Below, piece by piece: positions 24,078-33,029 of a stretch of 34,882 nt of DNA; position 1 is the stretch's first letter, and the number at the start of each line of letters is the position of its first letter. Under the pieces are notes generated by a model. It did no database searches. It was given only the letters and a program-made list of their open reading frames with translations, and had not been told where the DNA came from. The position numbers were made by a program, and so were the translations under genes. This DNA comes from a bacterium (GTDB lineage: Bacteria; Acidobacteriota; Blastocatellia; HR10), in assembly GCA_041640655.1 (NCBI GenBank), contig JBEPZV010000028.1, positions 1-34,882 of the forward strand, read 5' to 3'.

Positions 24078-26330
24078 ATGAGGTCCACAGGCCCACGCTT
24101 CAAGCCGCTGGGAGCGACAGCGCTGGCGCTGTCACTTACTCTCGGTGGCGCCTGGGGGAGCGAGCGCTCTCAAGAGCGGGCGCTCACGGTCGAGCGCATC
24201 TACCGTCCGCCGAGTTTGAGCGGTCGGGTGCCGGCCAATGTGCGATGGTCGCCCGATGGGCGCTGGGTCACGTTCCTGGCCAGTAGCGCGGGAACCGAAG
24301 TCATGGACCTGTGGGGATACGACGTGGCCCGCCGAGAACGCGTGTTGCTTCTGAAGGCCGAAGCGCTGGTGTCAGGCGAGCCGCGCATCTCGCCCGAGGA
24401 AGAAGCCCTGCGCGAGCGCTTGCGAGTGACGTTCACAGGGATCACGAGCTATTTTTGGTCGCCCTCGGGCGCACATATCTTCATCCCCATCAGCGGCGAG
24501 TTCTATCTTTACGAATGGGCGACGCGACGCCTCGCGCGGTTACTCCCCCGCGATCTCTCCCGATTCGATCCGCAATATTCCCCCGACGGGCGCTTCATCG
24601 CCTATGTCAAGCGCAACAACCTCTTCCTCGTGGATGTGTCGAGCGGTCAGGAGCGACAGCTCACGTTCGACGGGACGGAGGACGTGCAGAACGGCGTGAG
24701 CGAGTACGTCGCTCAGGAAGAGATGGATCGCTTCACGGGCTACTGGTGGTCGCCCGATGGGCGGCGCATCGCCTATCTGCAAGTGGACAATCGTCCGGTG
24801 AGGGATTTTCACATTCCGGATTATCGGTCGAACTCCGTGGAGATCGAGAGGCAGAAGTATCCGAAGGCGGGCGATCCGAATGCCATCGTGCGCGTGGGCG
24901 TGCTCTCACTGGAGGAGGGCAGGACGGTATGGATGGACACGGGGCCGGAGACGGACATCTACATCCCTCGCGTCCACTGGCTCCCGGATGGTCGGACCTT
25001 GAGCATTCAGATTCAGAGTCGAGATCAAGATCGGCTGAGCCTCTATCTCTTCGACGCGACGACGGGGAAGGGGCGACTCGTCCTCACGGAGGTGGAACCG
25101 GGATGGGTGAATCTGCACGATCATCTCTATTTCTTCAAAGATGGCCGGCACGTCCTCTGGTCGTCGGAACGCACGGGCTTTCGCCATCTCTATCTCTACG
25201 ACATCGAAGGGCGGCTTGTGCGGCAGCTCACCCATGGGGAATGGCAGGTGGAGGCGCTCTGCGGCGTGGATGAAGCGCGAGGCGTCGTCTATTTCACGGC
25301 GACGGAGAAGAGTCCCCTGGAGCGCCATCTCTATCGCGTCGCGCTGGATGGGACGGGATTGACGCGGCTCTCGACCGAGGAGGGGTGGCACGTGATCACT
25401 TTCTCCCCGACGTTCGAATACTATCTCGACATCTACTCGAACATCACGACGCCTCCGCGGCTCAGCCTTCATCGCGCCGATGGCGCGCGTGTGGCGTATA
25501 TCGAGGAGAACGTCGTCGAGGAGTTGCAGGAGTATGCGCTCGGTCCCGTCGAATTCCTCACGGTGCGGGCCGAGGACGGGACGCCATTGCCGGCCATGAT
25601 GATCAAGCCGAAGGGGTTCGATCCCCGGAGGCGGTATCCCGTCATCGTCTACGTCTACGGGGGACCGCGCGCGCAAGTGGTAGTCAATCGGTGGGGCGGG
25701 GACCGGTTCCTCTGGCATCAGCTCATGGCTCAGCGCGGATTCCTCATCTTCAGCCTGGACAATCGCGGCTCGTGGGGGAGAGGGAAAGCGTGGGAGCTGA
25801 AGATCCATCGGCGGCTCGGATATTGGGAGGTGAAGGATCAGCTCGCGGGCGTCGCGTATCTGAAGTCGCTCCCTTATGTGGACCCGCAGCGGATCGGCAT
25901 TTGGGGCTGGAGTTATGGGGGGTATATGACGCTCATGGCGCTCTTCACGGCGCCGGAGGTGTTCCGAACGGGGATCGCCGTGGCTCCGGTGACCGACTGG
26001 CGAAACTACGACACGCACTACACGGAGCGATACCTCGAGCGCCCGCAGGAGAATCCCGAGGGGTATCGGCTCAGCTCGCCGATCACTTACGCTGCTCAGG
26101 TGAAGGTCCGATTCCTGCTCGTGCACGGTATGGCCGATGACAACGTGCACGTCCAGGATACGGTTCAGCTTGTGGATGCGCTCATCCGCGCGCGACGCCC
26201 CTTCGATCTGATGCTCTATCCTGGGGAGAAGCATGGCATCCGTGGCCCTGACGCGCGAATCCACCTCTTCACCCTAATGACCGACTATTTCCTGCGCCAT
26301 CTCGCTTCGCTGAAGGAGGGGGGATCATGA
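24078..26330 (+). CDS. Dipeptidyl peptidase IV (S9B family)
   Basis: Propeller motifs (WWSPDG, YPKAGDPN), nucleophile GWSYGG, HGMADDNVH and YPGEKHGI. Confidence 0.96.
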   Translation: MRSTGPRFKPLGATALALSLTLGGAWGSERSQERALTVERIYRPPSLSGRVPANVRWSPDGRWVTFLASSAGTEVMDLWGYDVARRERVLLLKAEALVSGEPRISPEEEALRERLRVTFTGITSYFWSPSGAHIFIPISGEFYLYEWATRRLARLLPRDLSRFDPQYSPDGRFIAYVKRNNLFLVDVSSGQERQLTFDGTEDVQNGVSEYVAQEEMDRFTGYWWSPDGRRIAYLQVDNRPVRDFHIPDYRSNSVEIERQKYPKAGDPNAIVRVGVLSLEEGRTVWMDTGPETDIYIPRVHWLPDGRTLSIQIQSRDQDRLSLYLFDATTGKGRLVLTEVEPGWVNLHDHLYFFKDGRHVLWSSERTGFRHLYLYDIEGRLVRQLTHGEWQVEALCGVDEARGVVYFTATEKSPLERHLYRVALDGTGLTRLSTEEGWHVITFSPTFEYYLDIYSNITTPPRLSLHRADGARVAYIEENVVEELQEYALGPVEFLTVRAEDGTPLPAMMIKPKGFDPRRRYPVIVYVYGGPRAQVVVNRWGGDRFLWHQLMAQRGFLIFSLDNRGSWGRGKAWELKIHRRLGYWEVKDQLAGVAYLKSLPYVDPQRIGIWGWSYGGYMTLMALFTAPEVFRTGIAVAPVTDWRNYDTHYTERYLERPQENPEGYRLSSPITYAAQVKVRFLLVHGMADDNVHVQDTVQLVDALIRARRPFDLMLYPGEKHGIRGPDARIHLFTLMTDYFLRHLASLKEGGS

Positions 26331-27247
26331 ACGCGCGGGACGTCGGGAGAGTGGGTCTGGTGTCCGGGCTCCTCATGCTTCTCTCTCCTGGGATGTGGCC
26401 GATGGCGCCTCCCTCGCAGGTCGCCGAGTCGGCTCCGATCCTCTCCGGATACGAGATCGTGCGGGTCTATCCGCATGATCCGGAGGCGTTCACGCAAGGC
26501 CTCGTGTACGATGGAGGATACCTCTACGAGAGCACGGGACTACATGGGCGATCCTCGCTGCGAAAGGTGGAGCTGGAGACGGGACGCGTCGTGAAGATTC
26601 ATCACCTTCCTCCGGAATTCTTCGGTGAAGGATTGACGCTCTGGCGGGACCACCTCATCCAGCTCACCTGGCACGAGCGCACGGGGTTCGTGTATGAGAA
26701 GGAGACGTTCCGTCTGCTCCGGACGTTCACCTACGCGACCGAGGGATGGGGACTCACCCACGATGGCCGGCATCTCATTCGGAGCGATGGGACGGCGACG
26801 CTTTATTTTCTGGACCCGGAGACGTTCCACGAGGTGCGGCGCCTGCAGGTGCATGACCGCGGCCGACCCGTGCGGTTCTTGAACGAACTGGAATACGTGC
26901 GGGGGGAGATCTACGCGAACGTGTGGCAGACGGAATGCATCGCGCGCATCTCGCCGCGGACGGGGCGCGTCCTGGGCTGGATTGATCTCACCGGACTGCT
27001 GAGCCCGGAGGATCGCGCGCGTCCGGTGGATGTGCTCAACGGCATCGCGTATGACGCCGAGCGCGATCGGCTCTTCGTGACGGGCAAGCTGTGGCCGAAG
27101 CTCTTCGAGATCCGCGTGACGAAACAGATCGTTTCGTCACGCGATGGTCGGGTCAGGTGTTCGCTTCCCGGGGAGGAGGTGCCCCATGCCGCGCATCGTC
27201 TCTCTGATCGCGAGCGCGACGGAGATCATCTGCGCGCTCGGTTTTGA
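26327..27247 (+). CDS. Glutaminyl-peptide cyclotransferase (plant/bacterial beta-propeller type)
   Basis: YPHDPEAFTQGL, ESTGLHG, FGEGL, QLTW, EGWGLT, LNELE, ANVW, VLNGIAYD and VTGKLWP motifs. ATGA overlap with DPP-IV. Confidence 0.95.
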   Translation: MNARDVGRVGLVSGLLMLLSPGMWPMAPPSQVAESAPILSGYEIVRVYPHDPEAFTQGLVYDGGYLYESTGLHGRSSLRKVELETGRVVKIHHLPPEFFGEGLTLWRDHLIQLTWHERTGFVYEKETFRLLRTFTYATEGWGLTHDGRHLIRSDGTATLYFLDPETFHEVRRLQVHDRGRPVRFLNELEYVRGEIYANVWQTECIARISPRTGRVLGWIDLTGLLSPEDRARPVDVLNGIAYDAERDRLFVTGKLWPKLFEIRVTKQIVSSRDGRVRCSLPGEEVPHAAHRLSDRERDGDHLRARF

Positions 27248-28106
27248 AGAGCATCTGGTCGGGCGGTCGCACGAATGCGATTACCCGGAATCGGTCCGAC
27301 GATTGCCCGCGTGCACGGAGCCGAAGTTCCCCGTCGAAGGGTGGAGCTATGAGATTGACGAGCGGGTGAAGGCGATCGTGCAGGAGGGCCTCTCGGTCTA
27401 TCGCGTGCACGGGGAACGCCTGCGCGCGCTGCGCCCCGATGTGATCGTGACGCAATCGCAATGCGTCGTGTGCGCCGTCAGCGTGAACGCGGTCGAAGAA
27501 GCCGTGCGGGAGTGGCTCGACCACCCGGTGCGCGTGGTCTCCTTGGAGCCGAATGCTCTGGCCGATGTGTGGGAGAGCATTCGACAGGTCGCGCAGGCCC
27601 TGGGCGTCCCTGAGCGGGGAGAGGAGTTGATCGTCATATTGCGCCGTCGGATGGCGGAGATCGCTGAGACGGCGCGCGCGCTCTCTCCCAAACCCACGGT
27701 CGCGTACATCGAATGGATCGAGCCGCTCATGGCCGGGGGGAATTGGATGCCGGAGCTCATCGAGATGGCCGGTGGGGTGAATCTCTTTGGCGAAGCGGGT
27801 CGTCACGCCCCTTGGTTGAAATGGGAGGACGTGGTGGCGAAGGACCCGGAGGTGATCGTCATCGCGCCCTGCGGGTTCGATATCGCGCGCACGCGTCGGG
27901 AGATGCCCCTCCTCACGCGGCGGCGCGAGTGGCCGCAGCTTCGCGCCGTGCGCGAGGGTCGCGTCATCATCGCCGATGGGAATCAATTCTTCAATCGGCC
28001 GGGACCGCGCTTGGTCGAATCCCTGGAGATTTTGGCCGAGGCCCTGCATCCGACGATCTTTCGATTCGGTCATGAGGGGAGCGGTTGGGAGCGATGGGCG
28101 GAATGA
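27186..28106 (+). CDS. BtuF-like cobalamin/Fe-siderophore substrate-binding protein
   Basis: RIVSLIASATEI, VGRSHECDYP, LRPDVIVTQ, PCGF and FFNRPGPRLVESLEILA. GGAGGT precedes ATG 27186. No signal peptide is visible. Confidence 0.88.
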   Translation: MPRIVSLIASATEIICALGFEEHLVGRSHECDYPESVRRLPACTEPKFPVEGWSYEIDERVKAIVQEGLSVYRVHGERLRALRPDVIVTQSQCVVCAVSVNAVEEAVREWLDHPVRVVSLEPNALADVWESIRQVAQALGVPERGEELIVILRRRMAEIAETARALSPKPTVAYIEWIEPLMAGGNWMPELIEMAGGVNLFGEAGRHAPWLKWEDVVAKDPEVIVIAPCGFDIARTRREMPLLTRRREWPQLRAVREGRVIIADGNQFFNRPGPRLVESLEILAEALHPTIFRFGHEGSGWERWAE

Positions 28107-28117
28107 GTCGCCTCAGG

Positions 28118-28480
28118 CAAGCCTCCCGAAGCGAACGACCGGATTCAGCTCGGGGTGAGCGAGAGCGAACTCACGTTATGAGACTGACCCACTTCCGCAC
28201 GCGAGCCCGCGCACGGGCGACCGAAAGTGCTCGGGATGAGCGAAGTGAACCCACGTTATGAGCCCCACTCTCTTCTGCACGCGAGCCCCCGAAGGGGGCG
28301 ACCGAATGTAGCCTGGGGCGAGCGGAGCGAGCCCTAGGGAGGAGGAAGCCCCAACCCCATTTCACGCCCGTGTGAGCGGGCGGCCCATGCGGAGGCAAAA
28401 CGTCACGTCGTCCGCACGAACGCGGCGTGTGACCGCGCGGATGGACCGCCCCCTTCGGGTCCTAGGGCTCGCCCCAGGCG
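28118..28480. repeat. REP-like array of about 3.3 degenerate 82-nt tandem units plus a partial inverted copy
   Basis: CGACC anchors at 28136, 28218 and 28299; CACGTTATGAG at 28172 and 28252; GCACGCGAGCCC at 28197 and 28277; a GTAG-prefixed hairpin at 28308-28338; inverted matches at 28447-28479. Confidence 0.8.
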
Positions 28481-28558
28481 AGCTTCACACGCCTGCTTCG
28501 CGGGCTTTATTCTGTCGCGAATCTGCGCGCACAAAGGTGCTGGACGGATACACGCGTC

Positions 28559-28588
28559 TTGACAGAGCCTCGAGCGGGTCCTTATGCT
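28559..28588 (+). promoter_or_regulatory. Putative sigma70-type promoter
   Basis: TTGACA (28559-28564), 18-nt spacer, TATGCT (28583-28588), 10 nt before ATG 28599. Confidence 0.6.
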
Positions 28589-28598
28589 TAGGACGGCG

Positions 28599-29018
28599 AT
28601 GCGGGCTCGGAGCAAGCGATGGCGATTCCGGGAAGAGGGGATTCATCCTCGAATCCTCGTGACTGTTTTTTTGTGTCTTCTGCTGGTGCCCGCATTCGCT
28701 GGGACTGCTCTTGAAGAGGAGAGTGGGCAAGTCTGGCTCCGATGTCCGTTTCGGACGATGTCCGGGGCCGCGCCTTCGCCATTTTCGGCAGATCCTTCAA
28801 AGCCGGCTCTCCGGAACGCTCAGCCCGAGAAGCATCTCCAGAGCAAGAGCATCTTCTCCCCCTCATGCGCTCAGCTCTCATGGCCGAAGCCATGCGCGAG
28901 CCGATTCGGTGAGGAAGCGGGCGCGAGCCTCTTGCTCCCATCGGACATTCATCGCCTGCCGATCAAACGCGCCCCTCCCATGTCGAAGGACATCTCGCCT
29001 CCGATAACGATTCGGTGA
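28599..29018 (+). CDS. Putative leader/arrest peptide with a signal-like segment and a RAPP motif
   Basis: ILVTVFLCLLLVPAFAG hydrophobic segment, a low-complexity spacer with three further Cys, and IKRAPP 12 residues before the stop. It lies directly after a good promoter. Confidence 0.6.
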   Translation: MRARSKRWRFREEGIHPRILVTVFLCLLLVPAFAGTALEEESGQVWLRCPFRTMSGAAPSPFSADPSKPALRNAQPEKHLQSKSIFSPSCAQLSWPKPCASRFGEEAGASLLLPSDIHRLPIKRAPPMSKDISPPITIR

Positions 29019-29073
29019 TCCTTCGGCATCTTCCTTCGCTCTCGGCGAAGGTCTACATCGGGGAGGGGGGCGT
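28967..29073 (+). promoter_or_regulatory. Putative SD-sequestering mRNA structure
   Basis: ACGCGCCCCTCCC (28967-28979) is a 12/13 complement of GGGAGGGGGGCGT (29061-29073). It encloses hairpins 28980-28990/29019-29029 and 29033-29039/29045-29051. Confidence 0.6.
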
Positions 29074-29269
29074 GAACGTGGAGTTGATCGTCGTCATACT
29101 TCTGGTCGCCGTCTTCTATGGCGGCATCGCCTTTTTGATCTGGAAGAACAGAAGACAGCGGGCGACTTCGGCGGAGCGCCCATCGGAACCGAGGGAGGCG
29201 GCGTCGCCGGAGGTCGTGGATGACATGCCGGTCTCCCGCCGTCGGAGGGGGAACAGAGCCGCTCGCTGA
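29072..29269 (+). CDS. Small single-pass membrane protein (about 65 aa)
   Basis: GGGAGG precedes GTG 29072 (alternative 29078). LIVVILLVAVFYGGIAFLIW is followed by basic KNRRQR, fitting the positive-inside rule. Confidence 0.7.
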   Translation: MNVELIVVILLVAVFYGGIAFLIWKNRRQRATSAERPSEPREAASPEVVDDMPVSRRRRGNRAAR

Positions 29270-29328
29270 ACGCGGCGGGCGCTGGGGCGAGTCCACCTGC
29301 GCCTTCCTGCGCGGAGAGGAGGACGACG

Positions 29329-30537
29329 ATGGCCGATTTCCATCAGACGGGAGTGGTCGCGACGTTGCACCGCTTGGTGCCGGGAGGATTGGAGCGATTG
29401 GAGCGCGAACTGGCGATGTATGCCGAGCAGCGACCGATCGCGCTCGTCTTGCCGGCCCTCTACAGTGAATTCGAGGGAGACGCGATGCCGCGCATCGTCG
29501 AGGAGTTGCGGCACGTCCCCTATGTGCGGCAGATCGTCGTCACCGTGAGCCGCGCGACGCCCGAGCAGTATGCGCATGCGCGCCAGATGATGGCCGGCTT
29601 GCCGCAAGAGGTGACCTTCATCTGGAACAACGGGCCGCGCCTACAGCGGCTGTACGAGAAGCTCCAGGCGAACGGCTTGCCCGTCGGCGAAGATGGCAAG
29701 GGGCGCTCCTGTTGGATGGCCTATGGCTATGTGCTCGCCAGCGGCAAGAGCGATGTCATCGCTTTGCACGATTGCGACATCCTCACGTACACGCGCGAGA
29801 TGTTGGCCCGCTTGTGCTATCCGGTCGTGAATCCCAACATTGATTTCGAGTTCTGCAAGGGCTATTACGCGCGCGTCACCGATCGGCTGCACGGGCGCGT
29901 GACGCGGTTGTTCATCACGCCGCTTGTTCGCTCGCTGCGCAAGATCTTCGGCCCTTTGCCGTTTCTCGAATTCCTGGACAGCTTTCGCTACCCCCTCGCC
30001 GGGGAGTTCGCGATGATGGCCGATTTGGCGCGCATCAATCGGATCCCCGGCGATTGGGGACTGGAGATCGGCGTCCTCGCCGAGATCTATCGCAATCGCG
30101 CCACCCGGCGCATCTGCCAGGTGGAATTGTGCGACACCTACGAACATAAGCACCAGGCGCTCTCTCCCAATGATCCGACGCGCGGATTGATGAAGATGGC
30201 CGTGGACATCGCGAAGACGCTCTTTCGCACGCTCTCGGCCGAAGGGGTGGTGTTCACGTCGGGAGTCTTTCGCACGCTGCGCTCCACCTACATCCGCGCG
30301 GCCGAGGACATGATCTCGCGCTATCACGCTGACGCGCTCATCAATGGGCTCTTCTTCGATCGGCATGAAGAGGAAGTGGCGGTGGAGGCGTTCGCGCGCG
30401 CGCTCTCGCTGGCGGCGGAGGCGTTCATGGAGGATCCGCTCGGTGTGCCGCTCATCCCCAATTGGAATCGCGTGACGGCGGCCTTGCCCGATTTCTTCGA
30501 TGAGCTGCTGCAGGTCGTTCGAGAGGATAATTCATGA
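29329..30537 (+). CDS. gpgS: Glucosyl-3-phosphoglycerate synthase (about 400-aa type)
   Basis: MADFHQTG, LPALYSE, GKGRSCW, HDCDI, FCKGYYARV, GRVTRL, FRYPLAGEF, DWGLEIG and YEHKHQ motifs, adjacent to the cognate phosphatase. Mannosyl specificity is not excluded. Confidence 0.85.
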   Translation: MADFHQTGVVATLHRLVPGGLERLERELAMYAEQRPIALVLPALYSEFEGDAMPRIVEELRHVPYVRQIVVTVSRATPEQYAHARQMMAGLPQEVTFIWNNGPRLQRLYEKLQANGLPVGEDGKGRSCWMAYGYVLASGKSDVIALHDCDILTYTREMLARLCYPVVNPNIDFEFCKGYYARVTDRLHGRVTRLFITPLVRSLRKIFGPLPFLEFLDSFRYPLAGEFAMMADLARINRIPGDWGLEIGVLAEIYRNRATRRICQVELCDTYEHKHQALSPNDPTRGLMKMAVDIAKTLFRTLSAEGVVFTSGVFRTLRSTYIRAAEDMISRYHADALINGLFFDRHEEEVAVEAFARALSLAAEAFMEDPLGVPLIPNWNRVTAALPDFFDELLQVVREDNS

Positions 30538-31382
30538 AGGCGAAGCTCGCGGGCCAACAGCTCGTCATCTACACGGATCTGGACGGGACGCTGCTCGATG
30601 CCGAGACCTATGCGTATGAAGCGGCGCGCCCGGCACTGGAGGCGCTTCGTCGCCATCGCGCACTTGTGATCCCCTGCTCCAGCAAGACGCGCGCGGAGAT
30701 GGAGCCGTTGCTCCGCGAGCTGGGGATTCACGCTCCATTCATCGTCGAGAACGGCGGAGCGATCTATCTCCCGCGCGAGGAATTCGCGGCGTTCGCGCCG
30801 GAAGCTGAACCATGTGGCACGTGGGCGCGCATCGCGCTCGGCGTCTCGCACGCGCGATTGCGCTCCTGCCTGGAGGAACTCAGGCGGCGCCTGGCTGTGC
30901 CCATTGTCGCCTGGAGCGAGCTGACGCCCGAGGAGATCGCCGCCGAATGCGGCTTGAGTCGTGAAGAGGCCGAGCGGGCGAAGCAGCGAGAATATGATGA
31001 GCCGTTTCGCGTGATGAGTGATGATCCGACGGTGTTCTCCCGCCTGGAGGCGATCGTCGCCGAGCACGGCCTTCGCCTCACGCGCGGTGGGCGATACGTT
31101 CATCTCATGGGACGGACCGATAAAGGGCGAGCTGTGCATGTGCTCACGGACATCTTGCGACGCCGATTCGGTCCGATCTTCACCGTCGGGATCGGCGATA
31201 GTGAGAACGATGTCCCCATGCTGCAGGAGGTAGCCCTTCCGATCCTCGTGCGCCGGCCTTCGGGAGAGCCCGATCCTGTCGCGCAGCGTCTCGTCCCTCA
31301 GGCGCACATCACCCGGGGGATCGGTCCGATCGGGTGGTGTGAGGCCATCTGGCACATTCTCGCGGAGGCGGAGCAGGGGTGA
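30534..31382 (+). CDS. gpgP: Glucosyl/mannosyl-3-phosphoglycerate phosphatase (HAD IIB)
   Basis: YTDLDGTLLD, CSSKTRAE, FIVENG, REYDEPF, GGRYVH, DKGRA and GDSENDVPML motifs. ATGA overlap with the synthase. Confidence 0.88.
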   Translation: MKAKLAGQQLVIYTDLDGTLLDAETYAYEAARPALEALRRHRALVIPCSSKTRAEMEPLLRELGIHAPFIVENGGAIYLPREEFAAFAPEAEPCGTWARIALGVSHARLRSCLEELRRRLAVPIVAWSELTPEEIAAECGLSREEAERAKQREYDEPFRVMSDDPTVFSRLEAIVAEHGLRLTRGGRYVHLMGRTDKGRAVHVLTDILRRRFGPIFTVGIGDSENDVPMLQEVALPILVRRPSGEPDPVAQRLVPQAHITRGIGPIGWCEAIWHILAEAEQG

Positions 31383-31385
31383 CCC

Positions 31386-33029
31386 TCAAGAGCGGGCGAG
31401 GAAGCGGCGGAATGCCGCCTGCGCCATCTCCAGTTCCCTCACGCGAAGGATTCGGCCGACGAGCAGAAAGGTGACCAGGCCCAATCCCACGGGCCCAAGC
31501 GCCGTGAGCGTGTGTCCGAGAAGACCGCGCGATCCCATGTGCGCCTCCAGCTCCCTGAAGCTCGCGTAGCAGATCGCGGACATCACGCCCGAGGCGAGCG
31601 CGATCTTGCCCAGCGAGTGAAGAAGGCGCCGCTCCTCCAGGTGACCGATCTTCCGGTGCATGAGCCCGAAGAGCGCGAGGAAGTTGAAGAGCGCCACGAG
31701 CGACGTCGAGAGCGCCAATCCGCGATGGCCAAATCCCAGTTGGCGCACAAGCAGATAGTTGAAAGCATAGTTGGTCGCGATCGAGAGGAGGCTGATGCGC
31801 ATCGGCGTGCGCGCGTCGTTCAGGGCATAGAACGCGGGCGCGAGCACTTTGATCGCCGCGTACCCGGCTAGTCCGATGGCGTAGAACGCCAGAGCTGCGG
31901 CCGTCTGCTCGGTATCGAAGCTCGTGAATCGGCCGCGTTCGTAGATGAGGCGGATGATCGGCTCGCCGAGGACGGCGAGCCCACAGGCCGACGGAATGCA
32001 CAGGAAGAAGACCAAGCCCACTGAGGCCGCGAGCGTTCGTCGAAATTCCGCGAGATCTCCGCGCGCCGCGGCGCGCGAGACTGCCGGCAGCGTCGCCATG
32101 CCGATGGCGACGCCGAAGACGCCGATGGGGAATTGCATGAGGCGAAACGCGTAGTTCAGCCAGGAGACCGGCCCATCTCCCAGATATGAGGCGAAGTTCG
32201 TGTTCACGAAGACGTTGATCTGAACGGCTGCCGCGCCGATGATGGCCGGCCCCATGAGCCGAACGATCTGCCGCACGCCCGGATCGCGGAAGCTCACAAT
32301 GGGCTCATAGCGAAAACCCACGCGATAGAGCGAGGGGACCTGAATCAAGAATTGCAATGCCCCGCCGATGAGTGTCCCGATGGCCCACCCCACGATAGCC
32401 CGCGGTCCGAAGCTGGGATCCATGACGTGAGCGAATCCGAGTCCGCCGAGGATCGAACCGATGTTGAAGAAGGTCGAGGCGGAGGCCGGGATGCCAAAGC
32501 GATCCCGGCTGTTGAGGATGCCCATAGCCACGGCGGCCATCGCCACGAGGATGATGAACGGGAACATGAGGCGCGTCATCTCGATGGTGAGCGCCATCTT
32601 CCCCGGGATCGCCTCGAATCCTCGCGCGATGAGCCCGACGATCTGCGGAGCGAACACGATGCCGAGCAGCGTCACGCCCGTGAGGACGAGCACCAGTCCG
32701 TTGAAGACGAGGTTCGCCAGGCGCCAAGCGGCGCGTTCGCCCCGCGTGACGATGAGCTGGGAGAAGGTGGAGACGAAGGCCGCGCTCAAGGCGCCCTCGG
32801 CGAAGAGGTCGCGCAGCAGGTTGGGGATGCGAAAGGCCGCGATGAAAGCATCCGAGTGCATGCCGACGCCGAAGACGGCGGCGAAGACCTGCTCGCGAAC
32901 GAGTCCCAACAGGCGGCTGCCCATGACGGCCAGGCTGACGACACCCGCCGAACGGGTGACGCGCCCGGCTGTCTCCTCCGCGATCGGCGGAGCGACCGGG
33001 GCAGAGGACTGTGGACCCGCCGTGTTCAT
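31386..33029 (-). CDS. murJ: Lipid II flippase MurJ (MviN)
   Basis: SRLLGLVRE, AFRIPNLLRDLFAEGALSAAFV, RLMQFPIGVFGVAI, ERGRF and AFYALNDARTP motifs. GGAGG precedes ATG 33029, with TACAAT at 33053-33058 on the minus strand. Confidence 0.96.
   Translation of the reverse strand: MNTAGPQSSAPVAPPIAEETAGRVTRSAGVVSLAVMGSRLLGLVREQVFAAVFGVGMHSDAFIAAFRIPNLLRDLFAEGALSAAFVSTFSQLIVTRGERAAWRLANLVFNGLVLVLTGVTLLGIVFAPQIVGLIARGFEAIPGKMALTIEMTRLMFPFIILVAMAAVAMGILNSRDRFGIPASASTFFNIGSILGGLGFAHVMDPSFGPRAIVGWAIGTLIGGALQFLIQVPSLYRVGFRYEPIVSFRDPGVRQIVRLMGPAIIGAAAVQINVFVNTNFASYLGDGPVSWLNYAFRLMQFPIGVFGVAIGMATLPAVSRAAARGDLAEFRRTLAASVGLVFFLCIPSACGLAVLGEPIIRLIYERGRFTSFDTEQTAAALAFYAIGLAGYAAIKVLAPAFYALNDARTPMRISLLSIATNYAFNYLLVRQLGFGHRGLALSTSLVALFNFLALFGLMHRKIGHLEERRLLHSLGKIALASGVMSAICYASFRELEAHMGSRGLLGHTLTALGPVGLGLVTFLLVGRILRVRELEMAQAAFRRFLARS

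Follow-up and report, generated by a model that had tools for sequence, protein, structure and literature searches.

The stretch of DNA analysed here (the window: 34,882 nt on the forward strand, contig C28, JBEPZV010000028.1 of assembly GCA_041640655.1) is part of a metagenome-assembled genome of 3.1 Mb and 64% GC from the HR10 lineage of the Blastocatellia (Acidobacteriota). The records of its close relatives carry the names 'bacterium HR10', 'bacterium HR08' and 'uncultured Blastocatellia' and come from hot springs; from sequencing runs the habitat was taken no further than the label 'hot springs metagenome'. The window raises the question whether an open reading frame (ORF) of 139 aa, which carries KRAPP near its end and precedes a small membrane-protein gene and the compatible-solute genes gpgS and gpgP, encodes a nascent peptide that arrests its own ribosome and frees the Shine-Dalgarno sequence (SD) of the next gene. 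RAPP-type arrest peptides were tied first to Sec/YidC genes and later to metal homeostasis, and the range of functions was widened in late 2025; to our knowledge, nearly all evidence on them comes from Proteobacteria, Actinomycetota and Bacillota. We consider it reasonably probable (about 0.65) that the 139-aa leader is a RAPP-type translation-arrest peptide that frees the SD of the small gene. This interpretation, first put forward in an earlier note made from the DNA letters, is supported in silico by comparison with related loci; the stall, its release by export force, the sign of the regulation and any influence on gpgS-gpgP are inferred.

Every element named in the earlier note, namely a promoter, the 139-aa ORF, its spacer, KRAPP and the SD of the next gene, lies where that note had placed it. 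The leader ORF (28599..29018, forward strand, as are the other elements of the locus) follows a sigma-70-type promoter (TTGACA-N18-TATGCT, 28559..28588, 10/12 consensus matches) and combines a signal-like N-terminus, a Ser/Pro-rich spacer, the sequence LPIKRAPP and a 12-residue tail. Its hydrophobic segment I19-A34 (28653..28700; Kyte-Doolittle 15-mer mean 2.91) is preceded by an n-region with a net charge of about +5 and ends in AFA-G; it may serve as a Sec signal peptide or else anchor the leader in the membrane. About 89 residues separate A34 from R124, above the >30 residues used as a screening criterion for arrest peptides of this type. The LPIKRAPP codons, which form the putative arrest module, occupy 28956..28979, with KRAPP at 28965-28979 and R124-A125-P126-P127 at 28968-28979. 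The small gene (65 aa, 29072..29269) lies in the same orientation and starts 53 nt after the leader stop at 29018. Its SD GGAGG (29062-29066) and GTG start codon (29072-29074) together make up the predicted sequestered strand (29061..29074).

The reality of the leader is doubtful from the single sequence, and on comparative grounds it is settled by the relatives. The comparative set comprised 13 clade loci, 11 of them distinct, and these 11 were aligned at the nucleotide level with MAFFT; homologues of the small gene were found in 7/7 genomes of the genus and in further loci from genomes and metagenomes. In all 13 loci the small gene is preceded by an ORF whose N-terminus is hydrophobic and whose LPI(K/E)RAPP lies 95–119 nt before the small-gene start. 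Up to the end of RAPP 13/13 gap runs are divisible by three, as against 1/13 between RAPP and the small-gene start; frame conservation stops exactly at RAPP. The ratio of non-synonymous to synonymous differences (pN/pS) is 0.57 for the leader (median dN/dS 0.38), close to the values of 0.49 and 0.34 for the small gene. Across the eight codons of LPIKRAPP we counted 11 synonymous variant codon states versus 2 non-synonymous ones, both in one locus. The indel pattern, the pN/pS and the synonymous changes within LPIKRAPP together argue that the leader ORF is translated and that its peptide is under selection, and an arrest peptide would be expected to show selection that ends at RAPP. The comparison of syntenic loci proposed in the earlier note thus bore out its expectation: the ORF, the hydrophobic segment and RAPP are kept in 13/13 clade loci, while the spacer varies, as does the tail after RAPP, both in length (3–17 residues) and in sequence.

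Within the 11 aligned leaders the invariant columns are M1, P31, G35, W46, L47, S55, G56, L71, K78, P121, I122, R124, A125, P126 and P127, and the hydrophobic stretch was found in 11/11. An AlphaFold2 model of the leader built from these sequences has a helix at residues 17–29 only (mean pLDDT 55.5), and a structure search with it was dropped, there being no fold beyond that hydrophobic helix. The leader matched no family in Pfam (E<=0.01) or NCBIfam, and its own family amounts to four clusters, all annotated as hypothetical. When the genome was scanned for ORFs of 50–300 aa that have R[AG]PP within 30 residues of their end, 68 were recovered, and the leader alone among them has a strongly hydrophobic segment. 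In the long ORFs of the genome a crude measure of bias gave 0.41 for RAPP and 0.86 for AAPP.

A scan of 28100-31600 gave two promoter-like sites where 0.3 would be expected. The -10 hexamer of the leader promoter ends 10 nt before the leader ATG, and both promoter and spacing are kept in 9/13 clade loci; given this short distance, the leader mRNA is probably leaderless or near-leaderless. The locus L037 likewise has the promoter, its -10 hexamer ending 5 nt before a GTG. The loci L045, L046 and L047 have a different arrangement: the -10 hexamer lies 60 nt upstream of a newer, SD-led start (AAGGAG-N5-ATG), and the ancestral leaderless start (GTG CGG...) reaches a TGA stop after 10 codons. The new start yields a much shorter n-region and retains the same kind of hydrophobic segment, so that these leaders appear to have had their start codon replaced and their function kept. 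In the window the leader can also be read as 144 aa if begun at 28584.

The RAPP codons are also constrained as RNA. As the earlier note had claimed, 28967..28979 is a 12/13 reverse complement of 29061-29073; this anti-SD strand consists of the RAPP codons, here CGC GCC CCU CCC, and includes CCUCC. In 13/13 clade loci the arginine codon is CGC or CGT, the alanine codon GCC or GCT and the first proline codon CCT. Across the genome CCT makes up 8.7% of proline codons, GCG 49% of alanine codons and CGG plus CGA 39% of arginine codons. This restriction of R, A and the first P to synonyms that keep the helix, against the preference of the genome, points to an RNA-level constraint in addition to that on the peptide. 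When every 21-nt window of the leader transcript was compared for duplex formation with the SD window, the one at RAPP came out best in 12/13 loci. The predicted anti-SD duplex of -30.9 kcal/mol ranks seventh among 1400 GGAGG-led candidate starts in the genome (median -19.6 kcal/mol), and of the six sites ranked above it three or more fall within longer ORFs and are no real starts. Separately, two other gene starts in this genome (G000 C10:14994 and C2:178141(-)) have upstream anti-SD duplexes of -33.2 and -31.3 kcal/mol and might represent further SD-masking leaders. The length of the G-run in the SD (29060-29070) was seen to vary, with two DNA runs and L040 carrying an extra G after 29064, which shifts the spacing from SD to start by one base.

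Folding of 28940-29100 returned the three-way junction described in the earlier note, closed by the RAPP-SD pairing and enclosing two hairpins. The first (28980..29029) takes in part of the leader tail together with the stop codon (29016-29018); the second (29033..29051, CCTTCGCT-CTC-GGCGAAGG) is likewise a predicted fold, with 85.7% of alignment cells paired. The fold has a free energy of -67.9 kcal/mol (z = -3.4), and 1 of 200 shuffled sequences was as stable. Six of six relatives folded individually gave the identical closing helix, in which the RAPP codons pair with the SD. The sequence of hairpin 1 is variable among relatives, the hairpin itself being present in 6/6 individual minimum-free-energy folds, and hairpin 2 is swapped for a different hairpin in L045-47. 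In the free RNA the predicted probability that the SD is unpaired is about 0.00–0.12 at 37 C and about 0.12 at 70 C (about 88% paired).

A stable and conserved fold of this kind might act by itself, as a thermometer or as a ligand- or protein-responsive switch that hides the SD, in which case the ORF would encode an ordinary small secreted protein; the hot-spring host would suit such a device, and compatible-solute genes could respond to temperature or salt. We regard an RNA-only switch as quite unlikely. The SD stays too firmly paired at 70 C in silico for a thermometer, the sequence of hairpin 1 is free to vary, L045-47 have another hairpin in place of hairpin 2, and the peptide-level constraint on LPIKRAPP is left unexplained. 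Nothing in the window reached the Rfam gathering score, and a search of 28450-29400 at an E-value threshold gave one spurious long non-coding RNA (E 0.25), so a match to a known RNA family is also lacking.

Under the arrest-and-unmasking model the locus would work as follows. Transcription would begin at the conserved promoter and the leader would be translated, probably from the leaderless or near-leaderless AUG. In free mRNA the RAPP codons would be paired with the SD and start codon, closing a very stable junction and keeping the small gene translationally off. By analogy with ApdA, ApdP and CruR, the ribosome is predicted to stall with R124-A125-P126 at the end of the nascent chain, the CCT codon 28974-28976 occupying the P site and with the CCC codon of P127 (28977-28979) in the A site, peptide-bond formation being blocked; the P-site and A-site assignment in ApdA and ApdP comes from structures (PMC10951233), and the CruR arrest has been mapped by toeprint (PMC12992588). 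A ribosome held on RAPP would occupy the anti-SD strand 28967-28979 and make the SD and GTG of the small gene available. The signal-like segment, about 89 residues upstream, would by then lie outside the ribosome, where a pull by the export or insertion machinery would end the stall. Slow export or insertion of the leader would accordingly raise the output of the small gene. The gpgS and phosphatase genes, most probably on the same transcript, could be affected only indirectly, via mRNA protection or polarity.

The association of a RAPP leader with this small protein is not confined to the clade. Among 401 sampled Acidobacteriota genomes, 8 (this genome included) match the small protein at E<=1e-4; L038, L039, L048, L056, L031 and other weak matches proved to be unrelated proteins sharing only a common hydrophobic stretch and were excluded before counting. 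Homologues in two further genera, g78 (4/4 genomes) and g94 (one genome with two loci), stand behind ORFs of 127–141 aa that have a hydrophobic N-terminus and end in LPLRRAPP, LPGKRAPP or HPRSPP. Comparison of the clade leaders with the g78 leaders by hhalign gave a probability of 1%, that is, no detectable homology. In g78 the small gene begins 141–157 nt after the stop of a 130–133-aa ORF with a transmembrane (TM)-like segment and the end ...LPLRRAPPA(PANS); the next gene is a convergent one of the OmpA family and gpgS is 83 kb distant, so that leader and small gene stand alone. In g94 one copy of the small gene lies behind ...LPGKRAPPA and directly before gpgS-gpgP, and the other behind a signal-bearing HPRSPP ORF and followed by a GGDEF gene and then gpgS-gpgP. 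These two loci, L065 (G233:C4) and L066 (G233:C3), belong to one genome of a different Acidobacteriota class, which has two cassettes before two gpgS-gpgP pairs; one copy has RSPP and a GGDEF gene before gpgS, the other adjoins a CLC channel gene with a CBS domain. Their GpgS proteins are 75–76% identical to that of the window, versus 70–72% for same-order relatives, which suggests transfer of the whole module. At L050 (G466) the small protein is a true homologue as well, but the 900 nt upstream hold no RAPP ORF and gpgS does not adjoin it. Given this recurrence with and without gpgS-gpgP, the stable unit on the present comparison is the RAPP leader plus the small membrane protein, and the association with gpgS-gpgP is frequent but optional.

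The g78 loci also offer a variation on SD masking. In their RNAalifold consensus, computed from four close sequences, the SD pairs with the last codons and stop of the leader (AACTCCTGA), 18–24 nt after RAPP, and the codons just 5' of RAPP pair with the first codons of the small gene; the g78 genome G216 (L054) has AGA GCT CCT CCC and a GGAGG SD instead. In the predicted folds L051-L054 thus appear to follow the same SD-masking logic via a different sequence.

Several observations weigh against the arrest-and-unmasking model, and we set them out together with the alternatives they favour. The leader lacks a coding signature: its GC content by codon position is 0.60/0.56/0.64, compared with about 0.63/0.45/0.80 for neighbouring genes. 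This weak third-position signal is what a chance open frame with coincidental complementarity would give, and long spurious ORFs are common in DNA of this composition (20095 ORFs of at least 50 aa in 3.1 Mb at 64% GC). Such a frame would leave unexplained the indel contrast of 13/13 versus 1/13, the dN/dS of 0.38, the conservation of the ORF in 13 loci, the analogous ORFs in two further genera, and a duplex that ranks 7 among 1400; chance is accordingly very improbable and effectively refuted.

A second difficulty concerns the helix itself. Compensatory pairing, which the earlier note had expected, could be followed only in part: the RAPP-SD pairing is conserved, with 89.1% of cells paired, but so high a value also came from 184 of 500 column shuffles, so that formal covariation is not significant. 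The SD helix has one double change only (C-G to U-A, in L036), and the covariation test is uninformative because both strands are too conserved. The pairing could thus be a by-product of conservation acting on the SD and on the Pro-Pro codons independently. This bears on the possibility of ordinary translational coupling without any programmed arrest, with passing ribosomes opening the junction and Pro-Pro serving merely as an SD complement. CCU-CCC is the natural complement of GGAGG, the conservation of pairing is statistically inseparable from that of sequence, and of the natural RAPP-like sequences that have been assayed in E. coli and B. subtilis the majority cause no stall (PMC10987492). 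We nevertheless hold coupling of this sort to be unlikely. It does not account for the arginine, which is invariant in 13/13 loci and present again in the non-homologous g78/g94 leaders that lack RAPP-SD pairing, nor for L, P, I and K upstream of RAPP, which lie outside the helix and yet are kept through synonymous changes, nor for frame conservation that ends exactly at RAPP. RAPP is, moreover, strongly avoided in Acidobacteriota proteomes, with an average observed/expected ratio of 0.117 (PMC12992588, supplement).

A third point is that the unmasking is incomplete in silico. We mimicked the stall by forcing 28955-28990 to be single-stranded, or by masking a footprint of -12 to +15 around the P site. 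Masking the footprint cost 8–33 kcal/mol and SD accessibility rose, but the SD remained mostly paired, with an unpaired probability of 0.01–0.35 at 37 C and up to 0.48 at 65 C; release is partial because other C-rich tracts recapture the SD. Of the folding check proposed in the earlier note, the gain in accessibility therefore stood and full unmasking did not. As to transcription, a contig from an RNA library (X20; 511 nt, 8 differences) covers 28642-29152, that is, the leader, the junction and the beginning of the small gene, and is compatible with leader and small gene being on one transcript; it could also stem from DNA carried over in the library, and a contig of this kind is unable to demonstrate a single transcript. 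The gaps that the X20 contigs left in the 3-kb stretch were given no weight as evidence. Finally, the RAPP codons of g78 and g94 do not pair with the SD (duplexes of -6.6 to -11.3 kcal/mol), and the exact coupling of stall codons to SD is therefore specific to the clade.

This last observation leads to the question of how far the leader might act on transcription. If the stall is real but works mainly as in CruR, by Rho shielding or by the progress of the polymerase, the leader would read out on the whole operon and the SD pairing would be secondary. CruR (Bp2923, DUF2946) of Bordetella pertussis acts in this way, with Rho-dependent termination and RAPP-dependent control of the next gene (PMC9426467). 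The RAPP codons of g78 and g94 lie 171–242 nt before the small gene, without SD pairing, and in the window gpgS has its own unmasked SD, which makes a transcriptional route the simplest way for the leader to influence it. The lack of further promoters described below is in line with such a route. On the other side, the interval from leader to small gene is highly structured, unlike a C-rich unstructured rut site, a Rho model leaves the codon restriction at R, A and the first P unexplained, and the SD of g78 is also predicted to be sequestered beside the stall site. We therefore consider a mainly transcriptional action rather unlikely, noting that it and SD unmasking are not mutually exclusive.

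With SD unmasking retained as the preferred reading for the small gene, the standing of the downstream genes can be assessed. The product of 29329..30537 matches the family NF040724 (GpgS_Meth, Methanococcoides type) over its full length (E 1e-108) with 364 bits, below the 700-bit equivalog cut-off, and GpgS chains in the PDB match it at E 1.2e-4. It is best called GpgS-like, with a putative sugar specificity. The next gene (30534..31382), whose start overlaps the gpgS stop by 4 nt, encodes a HAD-IIB phosphatase of the mannosyl/glucosyl-3-phosphoglycerate phosphatase family (MPGP, TIGR01486; 234 bits, above the cut-off of 164.75). The 59-nt gap before gpgS holds no promoter-like or terminator-like site, and no further sigma-70-like promoter was found from leader to gpgS in any of the nine loci scanned (in L045 and L047 the leader promoter lies outside the scanned stretch); that interval is also free of terminator-like sites. 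In the clade gpgS is present downstream wherever the contig extends far enough. The gpgS and phosphatase genes are thus most probably on the same transcript as the leader.

Since gpgS has its own SD (GGAGAGGAGGA) and no consistent SD-masking fold was found between the small-gene stop and that SD in nine loci, any effect of the leader on gpgS-gpgP would be indirect, through mRNA protection or polarity, or Rho-mediated as in CruR. That translation of the small gene is relayed to gpgS was considered and is not supported by these folds. The link to gpgS-gpgP suggested in the earlier note is therefore plausible, there being no intervening promoter in the nine loci and a recurrence in a distant genus, but it is not obligatory, as g78 is without it. 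In L008-L012, which are gpgS loci from other families of the order or class, neither leader nor small gene lies upstream, and the cassette is therefore not a general feature of gpgS.

The small protein itself has an N-terminal TM helix (ELIVVILLVAVFYGGIAFLIWK) followed by basic, acidic and basic-tail stretches, and the GC content of its gene by codon position is 0.61/0.50/0.79. A longer, 84-aa reading was excluded, L005 having an in-frame stop three codons upstream and the relatives an ATG at the position of 29072. Family matches were below threshold throughout (FixQ at E 0.0065, CcoM at E 2.7e-4), and no named family was assigned. Exhaustive profile search of 1.84 billion proteins at E<=1e-3 recovered a family of 44 representatives at 50% identity (P0017-P0057), and a set of 5.8 billion proteins contained 12 clusters. 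Members are about 55–70 aa long and consist of the motif MxLDxIVVLxLAxxFFGGIxxLxWKxR, a Pro/Glu/Gln-rich linker and a low-complexity K/R-rich end. A search of the ESM Atlas gave a best score of 0.86 with no named family, which we treat as a lead only. A role of the protein in membrane biogenesis is conceivable.

In SecM and MifM the stall site lies within a stem by which the following gene's SD is masked, and the gene regulated by ApdA/ApdP is secDF. A parallel to the clade loci in the placement of the stall site is also uDF_RQH_Enterobacterales, in which arrest-dependent induction of secDF2 by disruption of the stem has been shown (PMC10987492). The leader described here differs from uDF_RQH, SecM and MifM in that the four arrest codons themselves are the anti-SD (CCUCC) and in its output; a like case was not found in the available portion of PMC10987492. 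With ApdA and ApdP (Sakiyama et al. 2021, PMC7897499), which are reported to regulate the protein-localisation machinery (Morici et al. 2024, PMC10951233), it shares a signal or TM segment and a long spacer, which makes release by export force plausible. Beyond RAPP there is no sequence similarity to them, and no Sec/YidC gene is adjacent: where a Sec/YidC-monitoring leader would have a localisation-machinery gene downstream, the window has the 65-aa protein and then the GpgS-like and phosphatase genes. CruR, too, is exported, is about 140 aa long and has RAPP only a few residues ahead of its stop; it has in addition a copper-sensing CxxC motif at a fixed distance from RAPP (PMC9426467). We found neither a Pfam match to DUF2946 at E<=0.01 nor a conserved Cys pair in the 11 leader sequences.

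The closest class is the set of small secretory or membrane RAPP/RGPP proteins whose genes precede others of varied function (Fujiwara et al., EMBO J 2025; PMC12992588), seven of which, from Streptomyces lividans, stall. The leader has the features by which Fujiwara et al. (2024/2025) screened for RAPP-like arrest peptides: an ORF of <300 aa directly upstream of the next gene and in the same orientation, a localisation signal, a spacer of >30 residues and a conserved C-terminal RAPP. It resembles the members of that set in being a small ORF with an N-terminal localisation signal and RAPP near its C-terminus, before a co-oriented gene outside Sec/YidC (PMC12992588). It differs in belonging to a new leader family, in having an uncharacterised 65-aa membrane protein plus gpgS and gpgP as putative targets, and in that its stall is a predicted one. 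The expectation in the earlier note that such leaders control translocation or metal-uptake genes is outdated, as diverse downstream genes are already present in PMC12992588. The terms phosphoglycerate, glucosyl and mannosyl were absent from all nine supplementary files of that paper that were searched, out of ten, and our literature search found no paper joining arrest peptides with glucosylglycerate genes.

Some features of the flanking DNA were also recorded. A dispersed intergenic repeat lies at 28140-28510, between a periplasmic-binding-protein gene and the leader promoter. It gave 10–24 BLAST hits across the genome, has internal copies of about 80 nt and is missing at the same position in most relatives of the genus; in one DNA run the word depth at 28400-28500 was 2506, compared with 142 for the flank. 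Further upstream a glutamine cyclotransferase ORF (26327-27247) and the periplasmic-binding-protein ORF (27144-28106) overlap by 104 nt as listed, and the latter gene probably starts at a later codon than listed.

The kind of arrest leader seen here has already been published (PMC12992588), and the locus leaves the concept of RAPP arrest peptides unchanged; what is new is the leader family, the small-protein output, the recurrent gpgS-gpgP context and the use of the stall codons as anti-SD. The design would be compact, four stall codons doubling as the anti-SD. We suggest, tentatively and as a doubtful proposition at present, that the RAPP leader and small protein form a portable Acidobacteriota sensor-output cassette for the state of the membrane or of export, which has come to stand before gpgS-gpgP in two lineages or more, among them the HR10/HR08 clade and g94 (both copies). 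If so, glucosylglycerate synthesis would come under a nascent-chain force sensor instead of a classical osmosensor, and the small protein would either carry out the response on the membrane side or be an accessory of the insertion machinery that has so far escaped recognition. Its recurrence as a very small output gene behind unrelated RAPP leaders makes it a good candidate for a function related to membrane or export state. The locus would thus add a well-supported case in thermophilic Acidobacteriota, together with a recurrent tie to compatible-solute genes, and would offer a short and clean test object for the question whether RAPP stalls the ribosomes of another phylum.

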